Source of the DNA: a virus
Direction: 5' to 3' (one strand)
Virus record (IMG/VR): IMGVR_UViG_3300005098_000017
Location: 1 to 64,000 of that record
Length of the DNA stretch: 64,000 nucleotides
This document shows positions 9,710 to 56,743 of the stretch, in pieces (within the stretch, counting starts at the first letter, position 1; every line of letters begins with the position of its first letter). The notes beneath the pieces were generated by a model. It saw only the letters and a program-made list of their open reading frames with translations. It was not told where the DNA came from and did no database searches. A program made the position numbers and the translations under genes.

Positions 9710-10363
9710 TTACATAATACCAAATGATAGTTCTCTTAAATACTCAATCCCCGTTGCTAGATTATCAAATCTTACATCAATCATTTCATCGATGAATGGA
9801 TGCATATGCTTATCATCTGTTATAACAGCCACTATATGCTTTCGTTGATTGTATGCCCATGCAAGCTCACATATGCATCCTATTGATATATCACTTGTGA
9901 AACCATCTTCGATGATAGCGAATAATATATCCGATTGTGAGATCATCCAGAAGTCGCGCCTCATATGATACTTCATTGAAAGAGCTACCTTGTCAGATCT
10001 TAATCTGATATAAGTATGATTATCTTTACCAACGGGTTGACCCGGAATAGCTGCCTCCTTTAACAGAATAGGTAGGAAAACTTTTAAGCCCGCCGATCTT
10101 AATTCATCAGCTATTGACGATAACCTGTGTTTCACTACATCCCAAGGAAGCCCTGTTATTGGATGCGAAATATAAACAGATAGCTGACGAGTTGCAAATG
10201 TTGGACTTGTATTAACAGTTGCGGGCAATGAGTCATTAATGCCATATGTTGAACCCGTGTTATCCATGTGTTTCCAACATTCCTCTTTACATGGCATCTC
10301 GTAAGGGTAATTAGGGATTATCTGAGGCCAACCGTCTTTTTCAGGATGTTTGCACATTCTCAC
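9710..10363 (-). CDS. nucleoside 2-deoxyribosyltransferase-family protein
   Basis: VYISHP, RDFWMISQSDIL, SIGCICELAWAY. Confidence 0.8.
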   Translation of the reverse strand: MRMCKHPEKDGWPQIIPNYPYEMPCKEECWKHMDNTGSTYGINDSLPATVNTSPTFATRQLSVYISHPITGLPWDVVKHRLSSIADELRSAGLKVFLPILLKEAAIPGQPVGKDNHTYIRLRSDKVALSMKYHMRRDFWMISQSDILFAIIEDGFTSDISIGCICELAWAYNQRKHIVAVITDDKHMHPFIDEMIDVRFDNLATGIEYLRELSFGIM

Positions 10364-11890: not shown

Positions 11891-13975
11891 ATTTCTCCTT
11901 TCCATTTTAATTGTATCCACTCACATTTCTCTTCATCGAAATATTTCTTATACTTTAATAGCATGATAACCGCCAATAACAATTGTTCATGTGTTTTAAA
12001 CTGCTTCCAGTATGATGGAGATATAGCTGGATCATAGTCCGTGTATTCGACAGTACTACTTTTGATAACATCGTAAATAAGGTATAACTCATCAACAGGC
12101 GCGGCTTCATTATAAGGATAAATTGTCCTGAATATCTCCATAAGTTGTGCCCATGTAGGCAACCAGACAGGATGACGCGATGACCATGAGTGCCCATTTA
12201 TCGGGGAGATACCAACATAAGCCTCGCCCTCATTACCATCGGGGTAGGTAATATGTTGTGGTTTATCGCTAGTAAGGATCCCATAATAACCCTGCGAACA
12301 CACAACATGATCACCGATGCGCGGCTTCCACCTGTTCTGTATTTCCTTCACATTGCACATCTTATAATACTTATCATTCACTCTCTATCTCCTCCTTCTC
12401 TTTTATAATAAAGCCAATATTATTACCGCTGACAACTAAACCAACAATTTCTTTGGTTTCTTCAACCTTCTTTATGAACTCCTCTATACCGTGGCATCTA
12501 TAATATGCCACAGCATCATATGCTTCACCTTCTTTTGAATTAATAAACCAGTAAACCTTTTCCATTGTTACCTCCTTTCTGTCCATGACAACCGGGCATA
12601 AGCCCATTTCCTTTACCTTGTTACTTCCTTTCCACAGAACCTACATCTATACACATATACCTCCTGTTTATCCCAACCGCCTAATGTGAGAACCTTTTTA
12701 TAGCGGCCGGTAAATTCCTTTCTTTCCCAGTAGTGTATGCACTCGTCAATAGAGTCCTCATCTATTATACGAACGGTACCATCATTTAGCATTGTCTTAG
12801 TAATAAACCAAGGGCGGCCCAACTCATAGCCATCGATTTCATCACTATAAACAACACGCGCCTTTACTTCATCTGTATCTTCATCAATCTTAAAATATTC
12901 GATTCTACCTTTTAATACTTTATTCTTATGCTTAACTTCTACAGGTGTAAGTTCATCAAGACCCGTCTCCTCTTTAAATTCCTTTATCATCTGCTGTTTA
13001 AGCTCTGCTATTGTCACACTACACCTCCTTTTCTTCTTTGTTGATATCAAACAATTTCTCCAATGAGTATTTTTTCAAGATATTATTTACCATTTCCAAA
13101 AATCCAATGGTCAATCCTATCATTCCACTAATAGCTCTTGCTATGAACCAACAAGCTAATCCCAAGCCTGATAGTAATAAGATTCCTATCGCAAAATCCA
13201 TCATTTCTCCTTATCGGAAAATGCATGATTTACATCCTCAACCCACGCATGAATAGCTTCCAATGCTTCCTTATATTCCTCATCAGGGATTTCTATATTA
13301 TAACCCAAGCACTCTTTCAGATCATTGATGGTCTTAATATTACACAAAGTATCATAAGTATATAGAACCTGTTGGTCCCTATCATGAACCTTTTTGTGCA
13401 ATATAAATAATAATTGATCATCCTTAGGCAAGCCATCATTCATGCCGTCCCAATAAATGTACCAGTTCGAATAACTCCACCTAAGATATGCCATACTCCT
13501 TTCTCCCTTTAATCTGTATATGGTTCAACAATCTTCACATACCAATGAGAGCACTTGCCGGGCTTCCACTTAGGATGTGCTTGTTTTATCATTTCAGTCG
13601 TTGGTCCTACTGGTTCGCATACCTCCAATCTAGTCTCCCACCAACCTTCAAGTGATTCATTAAAATCCTCTACAAATAACTTAGCTAAAGACTTCACCTC
13701 TTCCTCCGTTAGATCAGGATAGAAAATGGCTCCATCAGTTAACATTCCTTCTGTCCTGCATGTTATATAGGCTTCATAAATCGTATCAGCATAACGCTTA
13801 TTGCTAGTATGAATATCAATTTCTATGATCCTTTTCATTCTTCTTTTCGTCAATGTTCAACAACTTTCTTAATTCCTCTATGGCCTCTTCTGCAAGTCTC
13901 TTCCCAAATAATTCAGGATCCTCTTCGATCTCCAATTCCTCCTCGTCATCAGGAAGGTATTCATTTTTAAACTCT

Positions 13976-48148: not shown

Positions 48149-48201
48149 AAGCCCGCCATTAAATCGAAGCGCGCAACCCGGCGGGCTTAGGTCGCGCGCT
48201 T
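48149..48201 (-). ncRNA. leader H-type pseudoknot
   Basis: Hairpin loop AAGCCCGCC pairs with downstream GGCGGGCTT before the RBS. Confidence 0.65.
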
Positions 48202-48226
48202 ATTTTTTATTCCACCATTTTATTGA

Positions 48227-48886
48227 CTATAGCCAGTCGACTTTAGCATATGGCTTGCCGTTTACATACCACCTCTTCTCGGACGTTATGAGCACGGTTT
48301 CATAGCGCTCAAGTGGGTAATCGTTACGCTCCCTCACCACGACAGCTTTAGGCTCAGGGATGATGGCATCGGTACCATGTGGAGGTGTGGGAGGGAAAAT
48401 TGAAACGAGCTGACGTGGAAGGATGACAAGAGAAAGGTGTTTGCCTTTCTGTTTGATGCGACTCCTGATGGTCTTCTCGAGACCCTTCTCGACGATTACG
48501 TAGCCATACGAATCCGCAGCCTCCTGGGCGAGTGTGTTCGCCATTTTATTCCCTGTTCTGGCTGTGTGTTTTACAATAACCTCCTTATGCTGGTTATCAG
48601 CGTAGTACCTAGCCAGCTCATATAATTCCATAAGCTCAGGCTTCTTAATATCATATTCTTGGTTAAACTGCTTCACCACTAACTGTGAGTCGCTGTGTAT
48701 TGTGGTATCACCCTGGATGTACTGGCTAATGTATGTCGCAAGAACTAGTGCTGCCCATTCAGCCTCGTTGTTTGTTGCCTCCCCAATGGGTATTGATAGT
48801 GATATACCAACCTCCGGAATATATATCCCAATCCCAGCGGGACCGGGATTGCCTTTTGATGAGCCATCAATGTAAATGTTAGTCAT
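48227..48886 (-). CDS. rnhA: ribonuclease HI
   Basis: [35 protein letters not shown]. Confidence 0.93.
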
Positions 48887-48900
48887 AATACCTCCTTTAT

Positions 48901-49323
48901 TTATGGTTTAACTTTTCGTAAGCCGAGGCAACCTATCGGTCGTATGCTTCCACTGCTGGTCTTTTCATATACAGGATGAGCAATCGTGTATAACTTGTCT
49001 ACGTTAGGTAGGTTGAGAGCAACTGCTGCAGAAGCATATTGATTACTAACAATTATTATATCAGCATCATCAGGGATGGGATCAATATCCTGCACCCTCT
49101 GTGTTATAACTGGGATCATAACCTCATCGTTCACTGGACATTCGTAAAAGATGCTCGGAAGTAATTCAGTTTCATGATGGACGTTCAGAAGGGTTCCAGA
49201 GGGTGGAATTATGATAACTAGCTTGGTTTTTCCAGGTTCTATGAAGTATTTCCTGTGTTCACTTATGTAAACAGCATCCTCAAAAATACATATCTCGTGA
49301 GGAGTGCAGTTTAAGATTTTCAT
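48901..49323 (-). CDS. hypothetical phage protein
   Basis: [11 protein letters not shown] start; RBS. Confidence 0.7.
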
Positions 49324-49345
49324 TACATACCTCCTTTTATTAGGC

Positions 49346-49404
49346 GGGCCTCATTACACCCCATGCAGAGCAGCAGGGCGAGGCCCTTAACCCTGAAGCT
49401 CTGC
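49346..49404 (-). ncRNA. leader H-type pseudoknot
   Basis: Loop GGGCCTC pairs with GAGGCCC before the RBS. Confidence 0.6.
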
Positions 49405-49419
49405 GAAGAAAGAGAGCTA

Positions 49420-49752
49420 TTAGGACAAGCGTTCTGCTTCCTGTCTAATCCGAACGGCATCCCTTACTACCTCTAACAGCGAAGGCGGTATAACCCTATT
49501 GTTCGAGGTTTTCCCAGTGCGCAAATCAACTGCGACAGCACAATCATGCTCGTAAAAGTATACTATATCCCCATCCGGGAAGAATGTTCCATTAGCAGTA
49601 GCAACATTATAAATCAGATCGTTGGTGTATTCGCCGGGATCGCGATATGGTGTATAATGATCCTGAGCGTCCGGTGTTTCACAACCGGTAGTGCTTCTCA
49701 CACATACATCACACCTGCCACTTCTACACAGACGGCACTTATCAAATAACAT
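49420..49752 (-). CDS. hypothetical Cys-rich protein
   Basis: RBS AAGGAGGT; CxxC pairs. Confidence 0.65.
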   Translation of the reverse strand: MLFDKCRLCRSGRCDVCVRSTTGCETPDAQDHYTPYRDPGEYTNDLIYNVATANGTFFPDGDIVYFYEHDCAVAVDLRTGKTSNNRVIPPSLLEVVRDAVRIRQEAERLS

Positions 49753-49778
49753 AATACCTCCTTATTTTAATGTTTTAT

Positions 49779-49833
49779 GCCCGCCATTAGAACCAAGCCA
49801 GGTGAGGCCGGCGGGCTTAGCCCTACCCGGCTT
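49779..49833 (-). ncRNA. leader H-type pseudoknot
   Basis: Loop GCCCGCC pairs with GGCGGGC. Confidence 0.65.
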
Positions 49834-49855
49834 TTTTAATTTCCAGCTGATTGAC

Positions 49856-50221
49856 CTATACAAGAGATGGTCCAACTGCATCCTGAACCTGAGGCTTTCC
49901 ATACTCAAGCTTCCACCCATTCTTCGGTCGTAAATTTCTCTTGAACCATTCGAACCATGCACGATCCATGACAACGATCTTCTTACTTCTTCTGAATGCA
50001 ACTGCAATCCACTTGCGGTTACCAGTCCTGTTAATCCTGAAGAACCATACGATATCATTAGCATGTAGTTTACCACTGCGTACTAGCCTGGCCCACTGGC
50101 TGCTCTTCTCAGGATTCTGAGCAGCCAATACAAATGTGTAACTATTTTTCCACCTCGCTATAGAGGTGGTGCCTCCCAGAATCTTGGGGAGGTTGATTTT
50201 TAGAAACTGAGTCAATGACAT
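49856..50221 (-). CDS. hypothetical protein (paralog of 16490..16834)
   Basis: Start moved to the ATG at 50221 after GAGGAGGT. Confidence 0.7.
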   Translation of the reverse strand: MSLTQFLKINLPKILGGTTSIARWKNSYTFVLAAQNPEKSSQWARLVRSGKLHANDIVWFFRINRTGNRKWIAVAFRRSKKIVVMDRAWFEWFKRNLRPKNGWKLEYGKPQVQDAVGPSLV

Positions 50222-50245
50222 AATACACCTCCTCTTTTGGAGGTT

Positions 50246-50303
50246 GCCTGCCACTTTTACCCACAGATAAGGCGAGGCCGGCAGGCTTTACCCCGCCTTA
50301 TCT
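50246..50303 (-). ncRNA. leader H-type pseudoknot
   Basis: Loop GCCTGCC pairs with GGCAGGC. Confidence 0.65.
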
Positions 50304-50412
50304 TATCACTCCAGCTCATTGACTCCATCACGAGCCAACAAGCCGGCCAAACCCTCCGGCACTCTTGCGGCACCGCTCCTCGCAGGCCGCACACAGGGGA
50401 GGAGAGGCTTGG

Positions 50413-50479
50413 GGAGGCCTCTTAGACCCTCTATGAGGGAGCTCCAGCGCCACGTCAAGGCGGGCCTCCAGTGCTGGAG
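50413..50479 (-). ncRNA. HDV/CPEB3-like ribozyme fold, copy 1
   Basis: P1 CTCCAGC/GCTGGAG; P2 GGAGGCC; P3 GCC/GGC; L3 TTGACGT; P4; J4/2 TCTAA. Confidence 0.75.
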
Positions 50480-50577
50480 TAGCCCCCCGGTGCGGGGGCT
50501 TCATTTTTTTCACCTCCTTTCTAGCGGGATGAACTAGCCCGGCCATCTAGCCCATCCCGCGGTTTAAGGTTTAACCT

Positions 50578-52983
50578 TTAATCAAGTTTCCAGAAGTTGA
50601 GCCAGAATTCGCGATCGGCAGTAGCAAGAGGATGAAGACCAACAGGGGTTTTGATTCCAAGAATCCGCGCGAGCTGCCAGTTGCGCTTCTTACCAGTATG
50701 CAGTTCTACAAGAAAGCGTACATGTGCTTCAAGATCAGATTCAGTACCGGCAACAATAGCCAAGAAATCGCTCTCAGCGACAGTAAGAGATTTCCAAGTG
50801 GTAAGAATCGCCTGAGGTTCAAATCTAGCAAGAAGCCTGCGGAAACGCCTGTTTAGCCTCCGGAAGTTCCTAGTAAGAAGTACACGAAGTTCAGATACTT
50901 TACTCGCAAGGAAGCGCCGACGCCTGTCGAGCTCTCTGCGCCGCCTGCCAAGGGTAGCCAGAGCATCAGAAAGGTGATCAAGCCTAGGTAGCAGCCACTT
51001 TTCCATTTTTCGCCTCAGAACTTCGTTTCTGATCCCAGATGCTAGGAACCTGACTTTAGTTTCAGGTCTCGCATTAGCGAAGAGTCTACGGCTCCGATTA
51101 ACTACCGTATCAATCGCCGTTACTTTCTCTGCAAGAGCATTCACTTCATTCTCTATCTTCCGTATTCGAGAGAGCGTCCGTCCGAACATGCGCCTCCTTA
51201 TGCGATCCCACTTGAGGAACAATGCCTTAACTTCTGGATCAATGGTGCCATCAGGAATAAGATCCTTAAGAGACCTAACCTCTGGCTCAGCAAACTCAAC
51301 TTCAGGAATAAATTCAGCAAGAGGACCTGTTGGAGTTATTGCTACTGGATCCGCCTTCGCAGTCCTATTAGCGATCATTTGAGTAACAGTATCAAGCCTG
51401 GCAGTCGTACTCGCGAGTAGATGCAGTCCCGCTTCTACCTCATGACGAAGCTCCGGTTCTTTACCATTAGCAAGATTCACTGCAGCTTGGAGTAGCGCTC
51501 CAGTTCTCGCAACAAGATCCATATTAAGTTCAGTATCAGAAAGAAGCATTCGGGTAAAACCAGCATCAGCTCTCGCAATCATTTCCTTACCCAGCTCAAT
51601 ATTTTCCACTTCGGTACTAGGATCCATTCTCCACTCTCCGAAAGATATCTCCTTTATCCGGCTTCGTACGCTATCGAAGAATTCCTTAGCAACGAGAGGT
51701 TCCTTGAAGACCTTGGATGCCGCGGCGAGAGCCACTTTGTCGCCATCGGCATCCCATCCGCTAGGCATATCTGCAGGGTGTACCAGAATCGCATGCGCAC
51801 GATGGTCAACAATAATAGGAAGGATAAGAGTATCACCAGGCAAGATGGGCGACTTCTGTATGAGTAGGAGTTCTCCATCTTTCAGACCAAGCATCCGTGC
51901 AATCACAGGAGGAATAACAGCAGTGCCGGGATGTGCATTCTGAAATCCCAGATAGAAGCCCGGGCCTAGTCTCAACTTCCGAAGTGCAATCTTTAAGTGG
52001 TCCAGAAGCACTCTCCGCAGGAAGCCTGCCTCCTTTATGAGGCCGAATTTCCGCAGAATATCAGCAGTCAGAGTCAGCACTGCACTAGGTTCATTGATCG
52101 GATCAGCGTTTTTAACAAGGATATCAGCCGCTACCTCAGGATCAGAAAAACCATTAATAGCTTCAGCAATCTGCTCCTGAATCCGTTCAACAAACTCAGG
52201 CGCTGGATTAACATTCCATCCGAGTTTCCTTGGTAGAAGGAACCAGCGCGGCAGAGCTTGGCTGAGACTGATGCCGCCCGCGAATACGGCACCAACCTCA
52301 TGCAGCATGATGGTTCGCCCGAGTTCGAGTACGAAGCGCCGCCTCTTGATGAGTTTTGCGGTGTCAGCATCAGCAACGATATCAGTCCCTGTTTCCAGCT
52401 CCGTGAGGACCTCATCTGCAAGAGCTTCATTTCCAAGATACAACATCAGCCTCTGGAACCCAACTCTGCCGGGAAGAACTGGTACCGCTATCCCTTTCAG
52501 ACCAATAGCAGTCACTTTAAATCCATTCTTCACAAGAGCACGGGTAACCTTAGAAACCTCAGCCTCTGTAGGAGCATATGCTGCTGCCACAAGTTTTGTA
52601 AACCGTTCGCTAACGAAGAAGATCCCATCCACATTCATTTTCATATTGAGCTTGAGACCACGGATGCGAAGATCCATACCAGCCACACGTTCCGGCTTGA
52701 AATCCCAGCCTTTATTCGGAATTTCCGGCGTTGTCATCATCTGGATGCGCTTTCCAGGAAGAGATCTCAGATCAAATTCAGGATCACCGAGAATATTCGC
52801 AATCACTCTATTAACAGTCTCTATAGCAGAAGTAGGAACCACCTTGAAGATCCTACAATCTGGAATCATAGTAGGCTTCATTGGAAGATCAGAGTTCAGA
52901 TCAGGATCAAATGCGAAGAAGACACTAGCACCAGCTTCAGTAAATAACGCTTGCAGAGGAGACCTCGGTATTCTTTCCATCAT
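50578..52983 (-). CDS. single-subunit two-barrel RNA polymerase (YonO/cellular-RdRP-like)
   Basis: VDGIFFVS, GLKGIAV, QKSPIL and catalytic DADGD in the expected order; RBS AAGGAGGTGAT before the ATG at 52983. Confidence 0.75.
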   Translation of the reverse strand: MMERIPRSPLQALFTEAGASVFFAFDPDLNSDLPMKPTMIPDCRIFKVVPTSAIETVNRVIANILGDPEFDLRSLPGKRIQMMTTPEIPNKGWDFKPERVAGMDLRIRGLKLNMKMNVDGIFFVSERFTKLVAAAYAPTEAEVSKVTRALVKNGFKVTAIGLKGIAVPVLPGRVGFQRLMLYLGNEALADEVLTELETGTDIVADADTAKLIKRRRFVLELGRTIMLHEVGAVFAGGISLSQALPRWFLLPRKLGWNVNPAPEFVERIQEQIAEAINGFSDPEVAADILVKNADPINEPSAVLTLTADILRKFGLIKEAGFLRRVLLDHLKIALRKLRLGPGFYLGFQNAHPGTAVIPPVIARMLGLKDGELLLIQKSPILPGDTLILPIIVDHRAHAILVHPADMPSGWDADGDKVALAAASKVFKEPLVAKEFFDSVRSRIKEISFGEWRMDPSTEVENIELGKEMIARADAGFTRMLLSDTELNMDLVARTGALLQAAVNLANGKEPELRHEVEAGLHLLASTTARLDTVTQMIANRTAKADPVAITPTGPLAEFIPEVEFAEPEVRSLKDLIPDGTIDPEVKALFLKWDRIRRRMFGRTLSRIRKIENEVNALAEKVTAIDTVVNRSRRLFANARPETKVRFLASGIRNEVLRRKMEKWLLPRLDHLSDALATLGRRRRELDRRRRFLASKVSELRVLLTRNFRRLNRRFRRLLARFEPQAILTTWKSLTVAESDFLAIVAGTESDLEAHVRFLVELHTGKKRNWQLARILGIKTPVGLHPLATADREFWLNFWKLD

Positions 52984-52996
52984 ATCACCTCCTTTC

Positions 52997-53103
52997 CGCC
53001 GCGGATTTCGTTGCCCTCGGTGCGGCACTCCGAGGGTCGCCGGGCTTCGAGCGTCATTGGTGCCAAGGCTGGCCATAGAATGAAGCCCGGAAATTCTATG
53101 GCC
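52997..53103 (-). ncRNA. two tandem leader pseudoknots of the RNAP gene (53040-53103, 52997-53036)
   Basis: Loop CCGGGCTTC/GAAGCCCGG; loop TGCCGC/GCGGCG abutting the RBS. Confidence 0.6.
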
Positions 53104-53155
53104 ATGGCCGGGCGCCTTGACACCTCTGCTCTTTCGCGCATTTTATTTAACCTTA

Positions 53156-53596
53156 TTATCGATTAAATTCTCCATCCAATACAGCAAGCAGTAATCTTTG
53201 GAGTCTTCTTGGATCGGGTAAACCATATGCAATTCCATAGATTGGGGACCATGAATCCACATTCACCCTAACTGTTGTTCCCAAAATTTTGAATTCGAAA
53301 GCATAATCATCGATAGTATAGCTACCCTCCATTACCGATTGGAAAATGAGTGCGTCTACTAGATCCTCACAAGCCCACTCCGGATGTTGCTCAAGAATAA
53401 CTCTCTGGATCTCTAAAGTATCACACCAACCCACAATAACTCTACGTTCATCATCCATAACGTACCCCGACCGCAGATGCAAATTGTACCATTTCTCACC
53501 CACCTTGGCAGTTACCCAAGGCGGTGAGAAGTAGTAGTCGCCGACTTTAACTTTGTCGGCGATCCAGTCACCGATTACGTCCCACAACCATGACAT
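53156..53596 (-). CDS. hypothetical protein
   Basis: RBS AAGGAGGT. Confidence 0.7.
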   Translation of the reverse strand: MSWLWDVIGDWIADKVKVGDYYFSPPWVTAKVGEKWYNLHLRSGYVMDDERRVIVGWCDTLEIQRVILEQHPEWACEDLVDALIFQSVMEGSYTIDDYAFEFKILGTTVRVNVDSWSPIYGIAYGLPDPRRLQRLLLAVLDGEFNR

Positions 53597-53627
53597 TTTA
53601 CACCTCCTTTAGTTTGACTTTCTTCTC

Positions 53628-53699
53628 GAGGGACTCTTAGATCCCGCATAAGCGGGAAGCCCCGGCGCCACGACAAGGCGGTCCCTCAAAAAGCCGGGG
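53628..53699 (-). ncRNA. HDV/CPEB3-like ribozyme fold, copy 2
   Basis: P1 CCCCGGC/GCCGGGG; P2 GAGGGAC; P3 GCC/GGC; L3 TTGTCGT; J4/2 TCTAA. Confidence 0.75.
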
Positions 53700-54170
53700 T
53701 TAACTCAATTTGACATCATTATTATCCTTCTCTTTCTTTATCCACTCTATCAATTCATCCACTAGGCGCTCCACATTATAATCATCAATAATAAGAAGCG
53801 CCCTCCTGACCTTGTAGCCGAGCACCTCATGCGCTTTTAGCACATGCCTCGGCATCCAAGGCCAGGTCTCATTGTATCCCCCATTATATTTGATTTGGAG
53901 AAGGATTACCTCCTTCTTATGGGGGATACCAATGCTGACGTCGATTTTAAATACGACGTCAGCTTTACTCCCGACAGGATAGTCTATTAATTTCCATCCC
54001 GCCGGAAGCTTGGAGGATAGTTCTTCAATGAATCTATCCTCCGCTTCGAAGCCAGCTCTATGCGCCTCATGTGCGATAGAGCTAACCTCGAAATCCGGGC
54101 GGATTATTTCATGACATTCCGCCCAGAATTTTCGCGCTATAGTGCGGGCCTTCTCCATTTCATTTCTCAT
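53700..54170 (-). CDS. PD-(D/E)xK-family nuclease-like protein
   Basis: G..AE, ADVVF, LLQIK. Confidence 0.6.
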   Translation of the reverse strand: MRNEMEKARTIARKFWAECHEIIRPDFEVSSIAHEAHRAGFEAEDRFIEELSSKLPAGWKLIDYPVGSKADVVFKIDVSIGIPHKKEVILLQIKYNGGYNETWPWMPRHVLKAHEVLGYKVRRALLIIDDYNVERLVDELIEWIKKEKDNNDVKLS

Positions 54171-54233
54171 TTATTACTCCTCCATATGCATTCCGCCAAG
54201 GAAGTGACAAGTCCCCAAGGTCTTCTACCGTTG

Positions 54234-55070
54234 TCATAATATCACCTCCCTTACTTTGATAACAGGGTTAACCCAATCAACAAAATGATAGATTTTGTTT
54301 ATACGAGGGGGACAACCTTGGTCTCCCTTTATTTCGATATCATTATGATCAGCTATCCATACCTCATGAAACTGATTAAACAGTTTCTTAAATATAGGCG
54401 CCGCCTCCATCTCATATCCCGGCTTAACCTCTATATTATTCGCCAGAAGAACATTATCGTTACCGGTCACCGCTACCATAAGCGCACGAATCTTATTGTT
54501 TTCCACATCTTCCATCACATATGTGATGGCATCACCAAACGTCATGGTGTGCCATCCGTCATGGAAGATGTGTGCGCAGCAATGTACATGGAACCCTAAG
54601 AACGGAAATCTTGGATCTTTACGCGATAGTGGACGAAGTAACCAGCGTTCCGTTCTAATTACAGGTAAATCTGTTATGTCCACAGCCGGTAATGAGATCC
54701 ATTCCCGAAATAATTTCTGAATTTTACCACTATGAAGGTCTATTTTTGTATACCTTGGATGCCACCGCCAAAATTCTTTCCAAAATTCGCGGTGGCCATA
54801 TCGTCTAGCCCAAGATGTCACCAAGTTTTCCCTCGGTGACATCCTCTCATCGAGGCCTGTTTCATTAGCGGCCTCAATGAGATGGGGGCTTAGTGGCCCC
54901 CTAAACTTAAAGATATACCCTGCAAATTCTGGCCGCAAAAGTGGCGTTAGAAGCCACAAGGCATCGCGGCCGATTTTATTTAAATTATCACGGCCGTATG
55001 CCCTTATGGCTATCTCGATAAGAGGTTGCAATGTCTTATTCTTCATCAAGCCTTCCAAATATGCATTCAT
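54234..55070 (-). CDS. hypothetical protein
   Basis: 278-aa ORF with RBS. Confidence 0.75.
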   Translation of the reverse strand: MNAYLEGLMKNKTLQPLIEIAIRAYGRDNLNKIGRDALWLLTPLLRPEFAGYIFKFRGPLSPHLIEAANETGLDERMSPRENLVTSWARRYGHREFWKEFWRWHPRYTKIDLHSGKIQKLFREWISLPAVDITDLPVIRTERWLLRPLSRKDPRFPFLGFHVHCCAHIFHDGWHTMTFGDAITYVMEDVENNKIRALMVAVTGNDNVLLANNIEVKPGYEMEAAPIFKKLFNQFHEVWIADHNDIEIKGDQGCPPRINKIYHFVDWVNPVIKVREVIL

Positions 55071-55107
55071 TTTTACCTCCTTTATTTTTATACATATTCT
55101 CCATTTT

Positions 55108-55166
55108 TGCCCGCATTAGTTTACCAAGGGCACCATCTGACCTGCGGGCATTGATCAGATGGCGCC
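55108..55166 (-). ncRNA. leader H-type pseudoknot
   Basis: Loop TGCCCGCA pairs with TGCGGGCA. Confidence 0.65.
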
Positions 55167-55233
55167 TATATACAAAATGGGCACCGTATAGTCATGGTAA
55201 CAATACGGTGCCCTCACAACATCCCCTTTTATT

Positions 55234-55310
55234 AGGGTGCTCTTAGACCCTTAGGGATTGGACCTAAGGGAGCCCCTCCACCACGTCAAGGTGGCACCCT
55301 ATCGGAGGGG
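55234..55310 (-). ncRNA. HDV/CPEB3-like ribozyme fold, copy 3
   Basis: P1 CCCCTCC/GGAGGGG; P2 AGGGTGC; P3 ACC/GGT; L3 TTGACGT; J4/2 TCTAA. Confidence 0.75.
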
Positions 55311-55363
55311 TAGCGGGGTCTTGGACCCCGCTCTTGACTCTTGAGGCCGGCCGGTTTATTTTT

Positions 55364-55636
55364 TTAATATTTCCTGTAATCATGATACAAATGGATTATA
55401 CTTTCATACCTGCCAAATATTTTGACAGGCATAGCATGCAAATCTGTTACTTTCATGCCTTCATAGAAGAATTGACCTTCTCCAAAATACTTATGGAGAA
55501 GGTCTGTTTCCTTTATAGGATGATCTAGCAAGAACAAAACTCCTTCTTTTATAAACCCAATCACCGGCATGATAAACCTCCTCGCCGCACCTTGGTTCAA
55601 CTCCCAGTATGCATACGGTGCGGCACTTATATGCAT
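55364..55636 (-). CDS. hypothetical protein
   Basis: ORF between two ribozyme-like elements; weak RBS. Confidence 0.5.
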   Translation of the reverse strand: MHISAAPYAYWELNQGAARRFIMPVIGFIKEGVLFLLDHPIKETDLLHKYFGEGQFFYEGMKVTDLHAMPVKIFGRYESIIHLYHDYRKY

Positions 55637-55659
55637 ACTGGGATACCGGCCGGCCTTAT

Positions 55660-55734
55660 GGACACTCTTAGACCCTTAGGGATTGGACCTAAGGGAGCCC
55701 TCCAGCCACGTCAAGGCGGTGTCCTTCTGGAGGG
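55660..55734 (-). ncRNA. HDV/CPEB3-like ribozyme fold, copy 4
   Basis: P1 CCCTCCA/TGGAGGG; P2 GGACAC; P3 GCC/GGC; L3 TTGACGT; J4/2 TCTAA. Confidence 0.75.
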
Positions 55735-55786
55735 TAGCAAGGCCATCATGTGAGACCTTGCTTTGGCTTGGGCGGCAAATCCTTCC

Positions 55787-55993
55787 TTAAAATTCGTAAT
55801 ACCAGACTTTTTTTCCAATTCTTTCAATATATTTGGCAAGTTTCCTTACTTTTCTAGTAGGTCTACCACCTGTGTAAGCCATACCTGATACCAAAGGCCT
55901 AAGAAGACTGACTCTGCCATCTGGAAATAATTCCCCAACAAACCTGATCAAATCCTTGCCTATCCAGAGATCAACTATAACTGTCCTTGTCAT
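55787..55993 (-). CDS. hypothetical protein
   Basis: RBS AAGGAGG. Confidence 0.65.
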   Translation of the reverse strand: MTRTVIVDLWIGKDLIRFVGELFPDGRVSLLRPLVSGMAYTGGRPTRKVRKLAKYIERIGKKVWYYEF

Positions 55994-56006
55994 TTTTTCC
56001 TCCTTT

Positions 56007-56066
56007 CGCCGCGGTCAGTTTTAACCACCAGTGGGCCCACACCGCGGCATTTATGGTACCCACTGG
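56007..56066 (-). ncRNA. leader H-type pseudoknot
   Basis: Loop AAATGCCGCGGT pairs with ACCGCGGCG abutting the RBS. Confidence 0.7.
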
Positions 56067-56083
56067 CTTGCCGCCCAAGCCAT

Positions 56084-56154
56084 CGGACGCTCTTAGACCT
56101 AGCCACAAGGCTAGGAGCCCCTCCACCACGTCAAGGTGGCGTCCGTCGGAGGGG
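56084..56154 (-). ncRNA. HDV/CPEB3-like ribozyme fold, copy 5
   Basis: P1 CCCCTCC/GGAGGGG; P2 CGGACGC; P3 ACC/GGT; L3 TTGACGT; J4/2 TCTAA. Confidence 0.75.
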
Positions 56155-56207
56155 TAGCAAGACCCCAAGGGGCCTTGCCTCGTCTACGGGGGCGCCAATA
56201 GACCGTA

Positions 56208-56492
56208 TCAATAAACATCAACTAAGCACTTGATATACGGCCTGATTAAATACACATAATCTCCAATCCTCTTTATATTGTGGCTCGAAACAAGTTGCGA
56301 TTTAACACATACTTTCGCATGACTCGGAACTCTTATAACGTACCCAAAGTATAATCTTTGGCCAAGGAGGATCAAATCCTCCTTGTCCAAAACGATGACC
56401 CTGTGTGTGTAACCTTCATAGCGATCATCAGGGTATATTACTGCTGCAAATTCTTGCTCATGTATTCTCACATCTTCAATCCACACTATCAT
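56208..56492 (-). CDS. hypothetical protein
   Basis: RBS AAGGAGG. Confidence 0.65.
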   Translation of the reverse strand: MIVWIEDVRIHEQEFAAVIYPDDRYEGYTHRVIVLDKEDLILLGQRLYFGYVIRVPSHAKVCVKSQLVSSHNIKRIGDYVYLIRPYIKCLVDVY

Positions 56493-56507
56493 TTTATCCT
56501 CCTTTTT

Positions 56508-56568
56508 CGCCGCGCCTTGGTTCTACGCCCAGCATGTACGCGGCGCGGCATTTACGCACATGCTGGGC
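56508..56568 (-). ncRNA. leader H-type pseudoknot
   Basis: Loop AAATGCCGCGCC pairs with GGCGCGGCG abutting the RBS. Confidence 0.7.
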
Positions 56569-56743
56569 TGGCGCCCCCGCAATCCCCTATTAGCCGAGGA
56601 AGCAAATCAAAAATCAAGGGGGCAGGGGGGTCGAAATACAATCCGACCCCCTCAAAATCCACAATAGAGACCTCCTGAATTTTTTGCCGGTTTTTTGACC
56701 CTTATAGGCCTACGATTGACTCCATCAAATGGGGAATTACCTC

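Follow-up and report, generated by a model that had tools for sequence, protein, structure and literature searches.

Nine early-gene leaders in the genome of an uncultured hydrothermal-vent phage (147,433 bp) raise the question of why each carries one compact pseudoknot before its ribosome-binding site. They are located at 48149-56568 on the minus (gene) strand of the window, the 64,000-nucleotide stretch of DNA analysed here. All nine pseudoknots are intergenic, in a stretch that spans 8.4 kb. An earlier note described them as H-type pseudoknots in gene leaders; all nine are present on the minus strand, and the helix sequences it quoted are correct. They almost certainly fold as classical H-type pseudoknots. 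The family consists of 5'-leader RNA elements that are gene-independent, and Rfam gave zero matches for them, even at E<5. Our best guess, offered tentatively, is that they may act in cis as a module for presenting or insulating the Shine-Dalgarno (SD) sequence, and maybe also as a roadblock.

The first helix, S1, is a GC-rich hairpin with a core of 12-15 bp, or 13-19 bp when extended by the greedy scanner. Its A-led loop pairs with a segment 9-21 nt downstream to form S2, which contains 7-9 Watson-Crick base pairs and usually opens with GCC and closes with GGC. L1 is mostly 2-4 nt long (0-5 in the scanner register) and 70% A. L2 is 0-1 nt in the nine elements of the window, and two sister copies have up to 2 nt. 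L3 measures 9-21 nt and contains A, with an A-rich 3' part. From 5' to 3', the order is the S1/S2 pseudoknot, an A-rich spacer, the SD and the start codon. There are four sequence subtypes (I-IV), and loop sequences differ considerably among them. Stabilities are -17 to -33 kcal/mol for the S1 hairpin and -10 to -17.5 kcal/mol for the S2 duplex, and S1 is predicted to stack on S2. Nested folding predicts S1 in eight of the nine leaders and leaves both S2 arms free. The secondary structure of the elements contains no three-way junction and no 5'-end pairing. Pleij's loop rules are the basis for judging which loop lengths suit H-type pseudoknots. On the sense strand, the short L1 bridges the deep groove of S2 (7-9 bp), and L3, at 9-21 nt, follows the 12-15 bp of S1. 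The loop lengths appear to be compatible with an RNA pseudoknot on this strand only. The individual elements are:

56568-56509 (-), PK9, type I, heading a 94-aa ORF: S1 56568-56554 / 56541-56527, 15 bp; loop AAAU plus S2a (56549-56542); S2b 56516-56509, 8 bp; L3 10 nt; GGAGG 6 nt downstream.
56067-56008 (-), PK8, type I, heading a 68-aa ORF: S1 14 bp, one bulge, separated by 1 nt from a 15-nt 5' arm upstream; S2 GCCGCGGU/ACCGCGGC, 8 bp; L3 11 nt; SD 4 nt downstream.
55648-55584 (-), PK7, type I, heading a 68-aa ORF: core S1 15 bp (55643-55629 / 55616-55602); S2 GCCGCACC/GGUGCGGC, 8 bp; L3 10 nt; SD 2 nt downstream.
55166-55108 (-), PK6, type II, heading a 278-aa ORF: S1 14 bp; L1 AA; S2 UGCCCGCA/UGCGGGCA, 8 bp; L3 13 nt; real SD about 30 nt downstream here, 1-3 nt downstream in sister phages.
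53109-53040 (-), PK5, the distal unit in the leader of the polymerase gene: S1 12-15 bp; L1 UU; S2 CCGGGCUUC/GAAGCCCGG, 9 bp; L3 18-21 nt; SD about 45 nt downstream, with a second small unit (5b) between.
52997..53036 (-), unit 5b of the polymerase leader, directly before the SD of the 801-aa polymerase gene: S1 CCCUCGG/CCGAGGG, 7 bp; S2 UGCCGC/GCGGCG, 6 bp including one U-G; L3 11 nt.
50303-50246 (-), PK4, type III, heading a conserved 121-aa ORF: S1 14 bp; S2 GCCUGCC/GGCAGGC, 7 bp; L3 12 nt; then a small conserved hairpin that sequesters the SD.
49833-49779 (-), PK3, type III, heading a 110-aa ORF: S1 14 bp, one mismatch; S2 GCCCGCC/GGCGGGC, 7 bp; L3 9 nt; SD 17 nt downstream.
49404-49346 (-), PK2, type IV, heading a 140-aa ORF: S1 7+5 bp on either side of a 2x2 internal loop; S2 GGGCCUC/GAGGCCC, 7 bp; L3 12 nt; SD 11 nt downstream.
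48205-48149 (-), PK1, type III, heading a 79-aa ORF: core S1 13 bp (48201-48189 / 48179-48167); S2 up to 9 bp, AAGCCCGCC/GGCGGGCUU; L3 9 nt; SD 14 nt downstream.

Unit 5b, which is matched by model R2 in all four phages (E 0.06-0.13), is probably a weaker tenth pseudoknot.

A tolerant scanner applied to the whole 147,433-bp genome found nine matches, all on the minus strand and all within the 8.4-kb stretch; zero were found on the plus strand of the whole genome. The dinucleotide-shuffled genome gave 0-4 matches on both strands together. When the region was shuffled in 150-nt blocks, which preserves composition, the mean was 0.3 matches and the maximum 2 (60 trials). S2 was also assessed conditionally, by shuffling the 35 nt downstream of an unchanged S1. 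The probability of attaining the observed S2 length was 0 to 0.01 per element (Fisher's combined P ~1e-18).

The same architecture, built from different helices, is found in three sister phages and in a distant lineage whose polymerase is 38% identical. Among 29 distinct copies, S1 contains 74 G-U pairs and 2 A-C mismatches, which fixes the RNA strand. Covariation in S1 is strong. In the type I copies, 98.7% of cells are paired and 15 of 23 pairs are changed on both sides. Type I S2 is 100% paired in an alignment fitted to S1 only, and pairing falls to 27-46% when the 3' partners are slid as a control. Sixteen distinct S2 5' arms are found, several of them nested length variants, each with a perfect complement; overall there are about eight different helix cores. 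Within each of types II-IV S2 is invariant, so its covariation rests on type I and on the differences between types. Compensatory changes and perfect S2 complements across copies bear out the earlier claim that both helices are kept despite differing sequences. The elements had also been called covarying, which is strongly true of S1 and also true of S2 within type I, but not of S2 within types II-IV.

Location upstream of a gene's SD is the only feature common to all nine elements. S2 ends 2-17 nt from GGAGG in seven of them, the exceptions being PK6 (about 30 nt) and PK5 (about 45 nt). In sister phages the same leader type precedes unrelated genes, indicating that it is a generic cassette head. 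The leaders are 82-100% identical in this comparison, and the next 200 nt are about 50% identical, the level of unrelated sequence. A translation-enhancing element, which the earlier note gave as an alternative, would fit the sole shared feature.

We propose that the element is a cis-acting ‘gene head’ of the mRNA, rigid and stable to heat. It would lock whatever RNA varies upstream (promoter-proximal bases, ribozyme or closing arm) into a closed domain, leaving the A-rich spacer and the SD unpaired regardless of the gene or upstream context joined to it. In this respect its action would be similar to that of the synthetic insulator RiboJ, a ribozyme plus a hairpin. At the entrance of the cistron, the element would probably also hinder 5'-to-3' travellers, for example Rho or an exonuclease of the RNase J type. 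As DNA, the conserved heads of 55-70 bp may double as joints for the exchange of ORFan genes between related phages. The distance to the SD varies widely, from 2 to about 45 nt, which counts against an SD-presenting mechanism. Nine promoter-led genes farther downstream share the A-run and SD but lack a pseudoknot, hence the element is dispensable for translation in general. In the gene-4 leader an additional conserved hairpin sequesters the SD itself, suggestive of regulation more than of simple SD presentation.

Promoter-like motifs and ribozyme-like elements are found near several of the pseudoknots (limits of the latter are approximate):

50311..50323 (-), promoter-like motif GTCAAT-N4-YGG, 7 nt upstream of PK4.
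49843..49855 (-), promoter-like motif about 9 nt upstream of PK3, with the TAG stop of the upstream gene inside it.
48215..48227 (-), promoter-like motif about 13 nt upstream of PK1, with the TAG stop of the RNase H gene inside it.
56085..56190 (-), ribozyme-like element upstream of PK8.
55660..55770 (-), ribozyme-like element upstream of PK7.
55235..55340 (-), ribozyme-like element upstream of PK6.
50390..50497 (-), ribozyme-like element in the PK4 gap, with the promoter-like motif between it and PK4.

The leader pseudoknots are part of an RNA-level expression layout with these motifs and elements, as had been suggested. The four ribozyme-like elements consist of a hairpin and a fold with HDV-like nested double-pseudoknot topology. 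Three pseudoknots had been placed right after a promoter, and PK1, PK3 and PK4 indeed begin 7-13 nt past the motif. Two had been placed behind a ribozyme in the same gap; there are three (PK6, PK7 and PK8), and PK4 is an additional case, preceded by a promoter-like motif as well as a ribozyme-like element. PK6, PK7 and PK8 are located 18-25 nt downstream of the ribozyme-like fold, and most of this gap is taken up by an arm pairing with the cassette's 3' end. The ribozyme-like fold, not PK6-8, would form the RNA 5' end. The proposed proximity to predicted 5' ends applies to some copies, including PK1, PK3 and PK4 near the motif, but not to PK2, PK5 and PK9, which have no predicted 5' end nearby. 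Armouring of mRNA 5' ends has partial support; as originally worded, it does not agree with PK6-8 lying behind the ribozyme-made end, nor with nine of the 12 promoter-like motifs, which lead directly into an A-run and SD without any pseudoknot.

A possible but rather doubtful alternative is that each pseudoknot stops an RNase J-like 5'-to-3' exonuclease or Rho at its own cistron, shielding early messages individually. H-type pseudoknots resist unwinding from the 5' side, as in frameshift stimulators, which favors this explanation, as do the very stable S1 and S2 helices and the placement at the start of each cistron. On the other hand, three copies are far from any predicted end, and a scan of 24 kb of downstream same-strand genes found the element absent. 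Ribozyme-made 5'-OH ends are poor substrates for 5'-monophosphate-dependent RNases; these ends would already be resistant, and they carry the ribozyme fold rather than the pseudoknot. The xrRNAs of flaviviruses and plant viruses are compact folds that depend on a pseudoknot, a property shared by the elements here, and block any 5'-to-3' exonuclease (PMC8374639, PMC5760640), including bacterial RNase J1 (PMC8374639), in support of a roadblock. In plant-virus xrRNAs the conserved pseudoknot is needed for ring closure around the 5' end (PMC8374639), and the loop-to-downstream pairing here has at most a loose topological resemblance to it. However, flaviviral xrRNAs are defined by a 15-16 nt ring made from a three-way junction and 5'-end pairing (PMC8374639). 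The leader elements have neither, nor an evident ring, and their secondary structure does not bear out the xrRNA-like character suggested earlier. They also have a far longer S1, are located in 5' leaders rather than the 3' UTR, and have no sequence or Rfam similarity to xrRNAs.

It is unlikely that the elements are a shared operator for a trans-acting RNA-binding protein of phage or host, which would turn translation of the entire early gene set on or off as a RegA-like or coat-protein-like regulon. Their shape is kept while helix sequences vary, the single-stranded parts are semi-conserved (A-rich L1, the GCC start and GGC end of S2, A-rich 3' L3), and they are restricted to one temporal module, which in one sister phage includes a KH-domain protein. 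Adjacency to the SD would suit repression by occlusion. However, the candidate binders conserved in every lineage are limited to the polymerase, RNase H and a pair of small ORFans in which no domain is detectable, and the loops differ considerably among the four subtypes. Autoregulation is impossible because the downstream genes are unrelated. The leaders of T4 gene 32, rpsO (S15) and the alpha operon (S4) similarly contain H-type pseudoknots in a phage or bacterial 5' leader, which influence translation initiation. These are single gene-specific operators bound by the protein controlled, and in rpsO and the alpha operon the pseudoknot includes the SD or start codon. In contrast, the element here heads unrelated genes and its SD is outside the fold.

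A signal in the nascent RNA (pause, anti-termination or anti-Rho), resembling put or another polymerase-binding RNA and acting on the phage two-barrel polymerase or the host enzyme, is quite improbable. The elements cluster around the polymerase gene, whose 801-aa product contains the DADGD motif typical of two-barrel polymerases, and three of them closely follow a promoter-like motif. However, one copy per gene exceeds the need for anti-termination, nine other promoter-like motifs lack the element, no downstream terminator-like sites needing override were found, and the elements are tied closely to the SD rather than to promoters. Least probable are selfish or purely recombinational DNA cassettes with S2 pairing as a by-product and no RNA function of their own: the leaders do mark gene-replacement borders, as PeSLs do (PMC2839356), but the strand-specific G-U bias, the compensatory changes in both helices, loop lengths that suit a sense-strand RNA pseudoknot only, and the architecture kept in the distant lineage, where the wholly different sequence precludes recombination between copies as the explanation, all argue against them.

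With the cis-acting SD module as the preferred reading, the closest analogy appears to be the PeSL cassettes of T4-type phages, which consist of a sigma-70 promoter and a terminator stem-loop (PMC2839356, PMC4122927). Both are short conserved intergenic cassettes present in many copies in a hyperplastic, ORFan-rich early region (PMC2839356, PMC4122927), and both bound gene replacements between related phages. Unlike PeSLs, the structured part here is a pseudoknot without a U-tract upstream of the SD, a promoter-like motif is found at only three of nine copies and is not of the sigma-70 type, and several copies are joined to ribozyme-like elements. The preQ1-I/II, SAM-II, fluoride and guanidine-III riboswitches share the H-type topology and an A-rich L3 near the SD. 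The elements here differ from them in having stems of 12-15 bp, no conserved pocket nucleotides, an S2 that excludes the SD, nine copies on unrelated genes and no Rfam match at E<5.

RiboJ-type synthetic insulators place a self-cleaving ribozyme and a hairpin before the SD, and the ermC, aprE and SP82 leaders are examples of 5' stabilisers in Gram-positive bacteria. In these systems structure near the message start gives independence of upstream context or slower decay. Unlike them, the elements here are natural, form a pseudoknot rather than a hairpin, and are also present without a ribozyme. In PK6-8 the order is nevertheless similar to RiboJ, with a ribozyme-like element followed by a structured element and the SD.

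The source record, of which the window is the first 64 kb, is 147,433 bp long and is estimated to be 84% complete (IMG/VR). A run of minus-strand genes extends from about 56.7 kb down to 24 kb, nearly all with a strong AAGGAGG Shine-Dalgarno (SD) sequence. The genes between 48.1 and 56.6 kb encode several small ORFans, an RNase H and an 801-aa protein (50578-52983, minus strand). The 801-aa protein has no match in Pfam or PHROG. A DADGD motif at residues 411-415 appears, from its sequence, to be of the kind found in two-barrel RNA polymerases, and we refer to the protein as the polymerase.

Nine leaders in this region (48149-56568) contain an H-type pseudoknot, here PK1 to PK9. An earlier note had described them by eye, and the observation is borne out by a scanner, by shuffles and by pair counts. 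In all nine the bases of a hairpin loop pair with a segment outside the hairpin. Read on the minus strand, every site has the same order: the hairpin stem S1, loop L1, the loop arm of the second helix (S2a), loops L2 and L3, and the downstream arm (S2b). S1 is GC-rich and 12-15 bp long. S2 has 7-9 Watson-Crick pairs in all nine copies, S2a being exactly complementary to S2b. L1 is mostly 2-4 nt and mostly A (0-5 nt in the register of the scanner), L2 is 0-1 nt in the window (2 nt in two copies from sister phages) and L3 is 9-21 nt. The elements are 55-70 nt long and have a GC content of 61%, versus 40% for the genome, a composition that favors stability. By rough estimate the S1 hairpin has an energy of -17 to -33 kcal/mol and the S2 duplex one of -10 to -17.5 kcal/mol. 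When only nested pairs are allowed, folding recovers S1 in eight of the nine leaders, and both S2 arms stay unpaired. In H-type pseudoknots a short L1 spans the S2 deep groove, and L3, which is long, runs beside S1. By this rule of thumb, the loop lengths sterically fit coaxial stacking, with L1 over the S2 deep groove, L3 along S1 and L2 near zero, and the asymmetry of L1 and L3 suits such a fold on the gene strand only. Some of the outer S2 pairs of PK1 may fail to form. The polymerase leader contains a tenth, weaker unit, 5b:

53036-52997, minus strand: unit 5b, with an S1 of 7 bp and an S2 of 6 bp, located 3' of PK5 and 5' of the polymerase SD

The scanner, which we wrote for this analysis, required at least 6 Watson-Crick pairs in S2, at least 8 pairs with limited irregularities in S1, an L1 of at most 7 nt and an L2 of at most 2 nt. 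On the whole genome it returned exactly nine matches, all on the minus strand within 48149-56568, and none on the plus strand. Dinucleotide shuffles of the genome gave 0-4 matches, both strands summed. In high-GC soil contigs, 447 matches were found in 629 kb. The scanner is therefore specific only in low-GC DNA, and a shuffle that preserves local composition was used as the control. When the 8.7-kb region was shuffled in 150-nt blocks, which keeps its local GC-rich composition, the mean was 0.3 matches and the maximum 2 (60 trials). When S1 was kept and only the next 35 nt were shuffled, an S2 of at least the observed length arose with P from <5e-5 to 0.01 per element, and Fisher's combined P for the nine elements is about 1e-18. 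The more than 119 matches of a metagenome pattern scan were rejected as chance GC-rich hairpins in high-GC soil contigs.

The pairing is that of an RNA read from the gene strand. In 29 distinct copies taken together, S1 contains 361 Watson-Crick pairs, 74 G-U pairs and 7 mismatches, two of them A-C. If the opposite strand is read, all 74 G-U pairs become A-C mismatches. This bias and the loop asymmetry led us to reject an antisense RNA.

By sequence the leaders fall into type I (PK7-PK9), type II (PK6), type III (PK1, PK3 and PK4) and type IV (PK2). Covariance models R1 and R2 recover types I and II, unit 5b and a distant copy (D1); for types III and IV their scores stay at noise level, so that neither serves as a single model for all subtypes. 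From a MAFFT alignment that joined the subtypes, RNAalifold predicted no structure, as the stems do not share a register. Covariation was therefore counted per subtype. The earlier note had also claimed that sequences differ while both helices are kept, and compensatory changes are indeed present in S1 and S2. For type I, seven distinct sequences were aligned by S1 alone. Paired cells make up 98.7%, versus 79.8% in shuffles, and 15 of the 23 pairs are changed on both sides (12 of 15 in S1, 3 of 8 in S2), with S2 100% paired. Sliding the partners by 1-3 columns reduces pairing to 27-46%. In type II, S1 is 100% paired and 4 of its 14 pairs are changed on both sides; in type III, this holds for 6 of the 8 inner S1 pairs. 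S2 is invariant within types II and III. Between types there are about eight S2 helix cores (16 distinct 5'-arm strings, several of them nested length variants). The support for S2 thus consists of the type I changes, the between-type cores and the conditional shuffle. In ortholog alignments made from sequence only, 198 S1 cells are unchanged, 27 are changed on one side and still paired, 15 are compensatory and 12 are broken, the last mostly register shifts in two copies with intact stems of their own.

Relatives of this system are few. Among 5.8 billion proteins the polymerase has only three close homologues (93%, 85% and 80% identity), and an exhaustive search added two distant ones (40% and 38%). 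Searches of the annotated phage collection and of IMG/VR found no relatives of the protein. An IMG/VR search with the type III pattern found nothing, and scans of the genome collection gave no relatives with a TnpB query and chance matches only with the 17-nt type I motif. The clade with the element is small, with five lineages found, all metagenomic. In the three sister phages there are 9, 3 and 9 pseudoknot leaders, each of them on the gene strand and upstream of an SD. The 38% lineage (L132) has two leaders of the same anatomy with wholly different helices, for example an S2 of GCCGCCCA/UGGGCGGC followed by AAAAAAGGAGG. RNase H directly adjoins the polymerase in this lineage and is also encoded nearby in the clade of the window. 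The 40% relative is a 1109-aa protein with an RNase H domain of its own (related loci at L130 6497-9826 and L131 6943-10102).

Comparison of the sister phages revealed that the leaders are conserved and the genes behind them are exchanged. Orthologous leaders are 82-100% identical, versus about 50% for the first 200 nt of the next gene in many pairs, which is no better than unrelated sequence. Protein comparison confirmed the replacements. In the window the PK9 head leads a 94-aa protein; in one sister phage an unrelated protein of 74 aa takes its place, and in another one of 98 aa that is 38% identical. The PK8 head is followed by a 68-aa protein in the window and by unrelated 96-98-aa proteins elsewhere. 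PK6-type heads precede proteins of 278, 156, 111 and 220 aa, and in other phages RNase H is found behind heads of the PK2 and PK3 types. The conserved heads reveal how this phage lineage swaps ORFan genes. The 220-aa protein (L008 5455-6117) has a KH_1 domain and is the only recognisable RNA-binding protein of the module.

All copies are intergenic, at least 16 nt past the upstream stop codon, and have an SD and a start codon of their own behind them. The end of S2 lies 2-17 nt from GGAGG in seven of the nine. PK6 has lost the usual spacing in the window (1-3 nt in sister phages), and unit 5b comes between PK5 and its SD. PK4 is followed at once by a small hairpin (50227-50244, minus strand) in which an anti-SD-like ACCUCC is paired to GGAGGU, the SD of a conserved 121-aa gene, for whose protein the ESM Atlas gave nothing informative. 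In two sister phages (L004 ~12746-12770; L008 ~9825-9850) this hairpin reads AACCUUCU / AGGAGGUU, the helix being kept by a compensatory change. Judged from these sequences, this SD looks regulated.

The upstream flanks are more variable. The motif GTCAAT-N4-YGG with an A-run occurs at 12 minus-strand sites (24414-50323) versus one on the plus strand. Every occurrence immediately precedes a gene, which makes the motif a plausible phage promoter, probably that of the phage polymerase. Two copies, at 48227 and 49855, contain the TAG stop of the gene before them. PK1, PK3 and PK4 begin 7-13 nt past a copy, and the remaining nine copies lead directly into an SD without a pseudoknot. Five minus-strand repeats have an HDV-like nested double-pseudoknot topology:

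~50390-50497, minus strand: ribozyme-like repeat
~53620-53690, minus strand: ribozyme-like repeat
~55235-55340, minus strand: ribozyme-like repeat
~55660-55770, minus strand: ribozyme-like repeat
~56085-56190, minus strand: ribozyme-like repeat

Their helices P1 and P2 covary (P1 is, for example, CCCCUC/GAGGGG or CUCCAGC/GCUGGAG), and they share a conserved GGUCUAAGAG joiner. No Rfam model matches them at the gathering score over the whole window or at E<5 over 46-58 kb. We consider the five repeats putative self-cleaving elements. PK6, PK7 and PK8 sit 18-25 nt 3' of three of them, and most of this gap is an arm of 11-15 nt that ends 1-2 nt 5' of S1 and can pair with a segment close behind the ORF. 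For PK7, PK8 and PK9, the arm has a perfect complement just past the stop codon of the same cassette:

56570-56580 with ~56185-56198: arm and partner of PK9
56069-56083 with ~55765-55780: arm and partner of PK8
55645-55656 with ~55345-55356: arm and partner of PK7

Such closing arms are also found in the sister phage L008. Their pairing would close each small message into a panhandle. PK2, PK5 and PK9 adjoin neither the promoter-like motif nor a ribozyme-like element. Given these mixed associations, the common denominator is the gene start and not the RNA 5' end. The location in gene leaders that the earlier note had reported is confirmed. The distribution of the elements argues against a main role in the protection of mRNA 5' ends, which the note had put forward as a possibility.

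Several known element types were considered and rejected. The leaders are not intrinsic terminators, since the gene strand has no U-tract; the A-run that precedes PK1 and PK3 is part of the promoter-like motif. Pseudoknots that stimulate frameshifting or read-through lie 5-9 nt past a slippery site or stop codon within a continuing frame, and the intergenic position of the copies excludes this role. A riboswitch was rejected for want of a conserved core, and an extension of the ribozyme because four copies do not adjoin a ribozyme-like element. Rfam gave no match at the gathering score over the whole window, and its sole match at E<5 within 46-58 kb was one chance IS009. The leaders resemble the PeSL cassettes of T4-type phages, which delimit gene shuffling in the hyperplastic early regions of those genomes (PMC2839356, PMC4122927), in that a repeated intergenic cassette bounds gene replacements between related phages. 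PeSLs, however, consist of a sigma-70 promoter and a terminator hairpin (PMC2839356, PMC4122927), and the pseudoknot leaders have neither a sigma-70-like site nor, on the gene strand, a U-tract terminator. A full-text literature search found no multi-copy, gene-independent family of leader pseudoknots in a phage. Leader pseudoknots of phages and bacteria are known as single gene-specific operators or riboswitches. In contrast, the present family is a multi-copy, gene-independent head kept across a phage clade, where it occurs together with ribozyme-like processing sites and a promoter-like motif specific to the phage. Among structured 5'-leader elements, a kind already known, it forms a new class of RNA motif.

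We favor the reading that the pseudoknot works in cis as a 'gene head'. Variable upstream RNA would be folded into a closed domain of very high stability, the A-rich spacer and the SD would stay open, and translation of the cargo would become independent of context. This reading fits the linkage of all copies to an SD, their independence of the gene and the order in which ribozyme, structure and SD follow one another. The same order recalls RiboJ, a synthetic insulator. The nine promoter-led genes without a pseudoknot and the additional SD-sequestering hairpin after PK4 argue against it. The main other candidate is a shared operator for a putative RNA-binding protein. Gene-specific autoregulation of the T4 gene 32 type is excluded, since unrelated genes stand behind the same leader type; the gene 32 leader is peculiar to one gene, that of the protein which binds it, and the leaders here are gene-independent.

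A roadblock to 5'-to-3' nucleases or to Rho is compatible with the gene head, and the two may coexist. The xrRNAs require a pseudoknot and also halt bacterial RNase J1 (PMC8374639). Their defining feature, a ring of 15-16 nt made round the 5' strand by a three-way junction or a 5'-end pseudoknot (PMC8374639), is not evident in the secondary structure of the leaders, which consists of two helices in a simple pseudoknot, has no junction and leaves the 5' flank unpaired with the fold. A signal for the polymerase is less likely.

It is possible, although on balance doubtful, that the pseudoknot belongs to a self-contained RNA cassette of HDV-like self-cleaving element, 5' arm pairing with the 3' end, pseudoknot, SD and swappable ORF, in which, as a bacterial-virus counterpart of xrRNAs and insulators, it stops 5'-to-3' nucleases or Rho and gives the ribosome an open SD. 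If so, the phage could plug in foreign genes with predictable expression. If the heads insulate or protect, they would be a natural version of synthetic parts such as RiboJ-type insulators and 5' stabilisers, and could be the first roadblock RNA of a bacterial virus.

Two further regions deserve mention. In L132, about 1.1 kb without called genes (480-1620) precedes the first pseudoknot leader and contains several copies of a unit like CCCCGUAUAGGGUUCAAUU; near 640-670 the sequence resembles a T-arm, where ARAGORN predicts no tRNA. In the window, an extended hairpin (50503-50570, minus strand) directly follows the polymerase stop codon, and an SD and ATG come after it. The frame from this ATG, a 72-aa ORF, enters the ribozyme-like element. 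The ORF is probably not real, and its translation could disturb the folding of that element.
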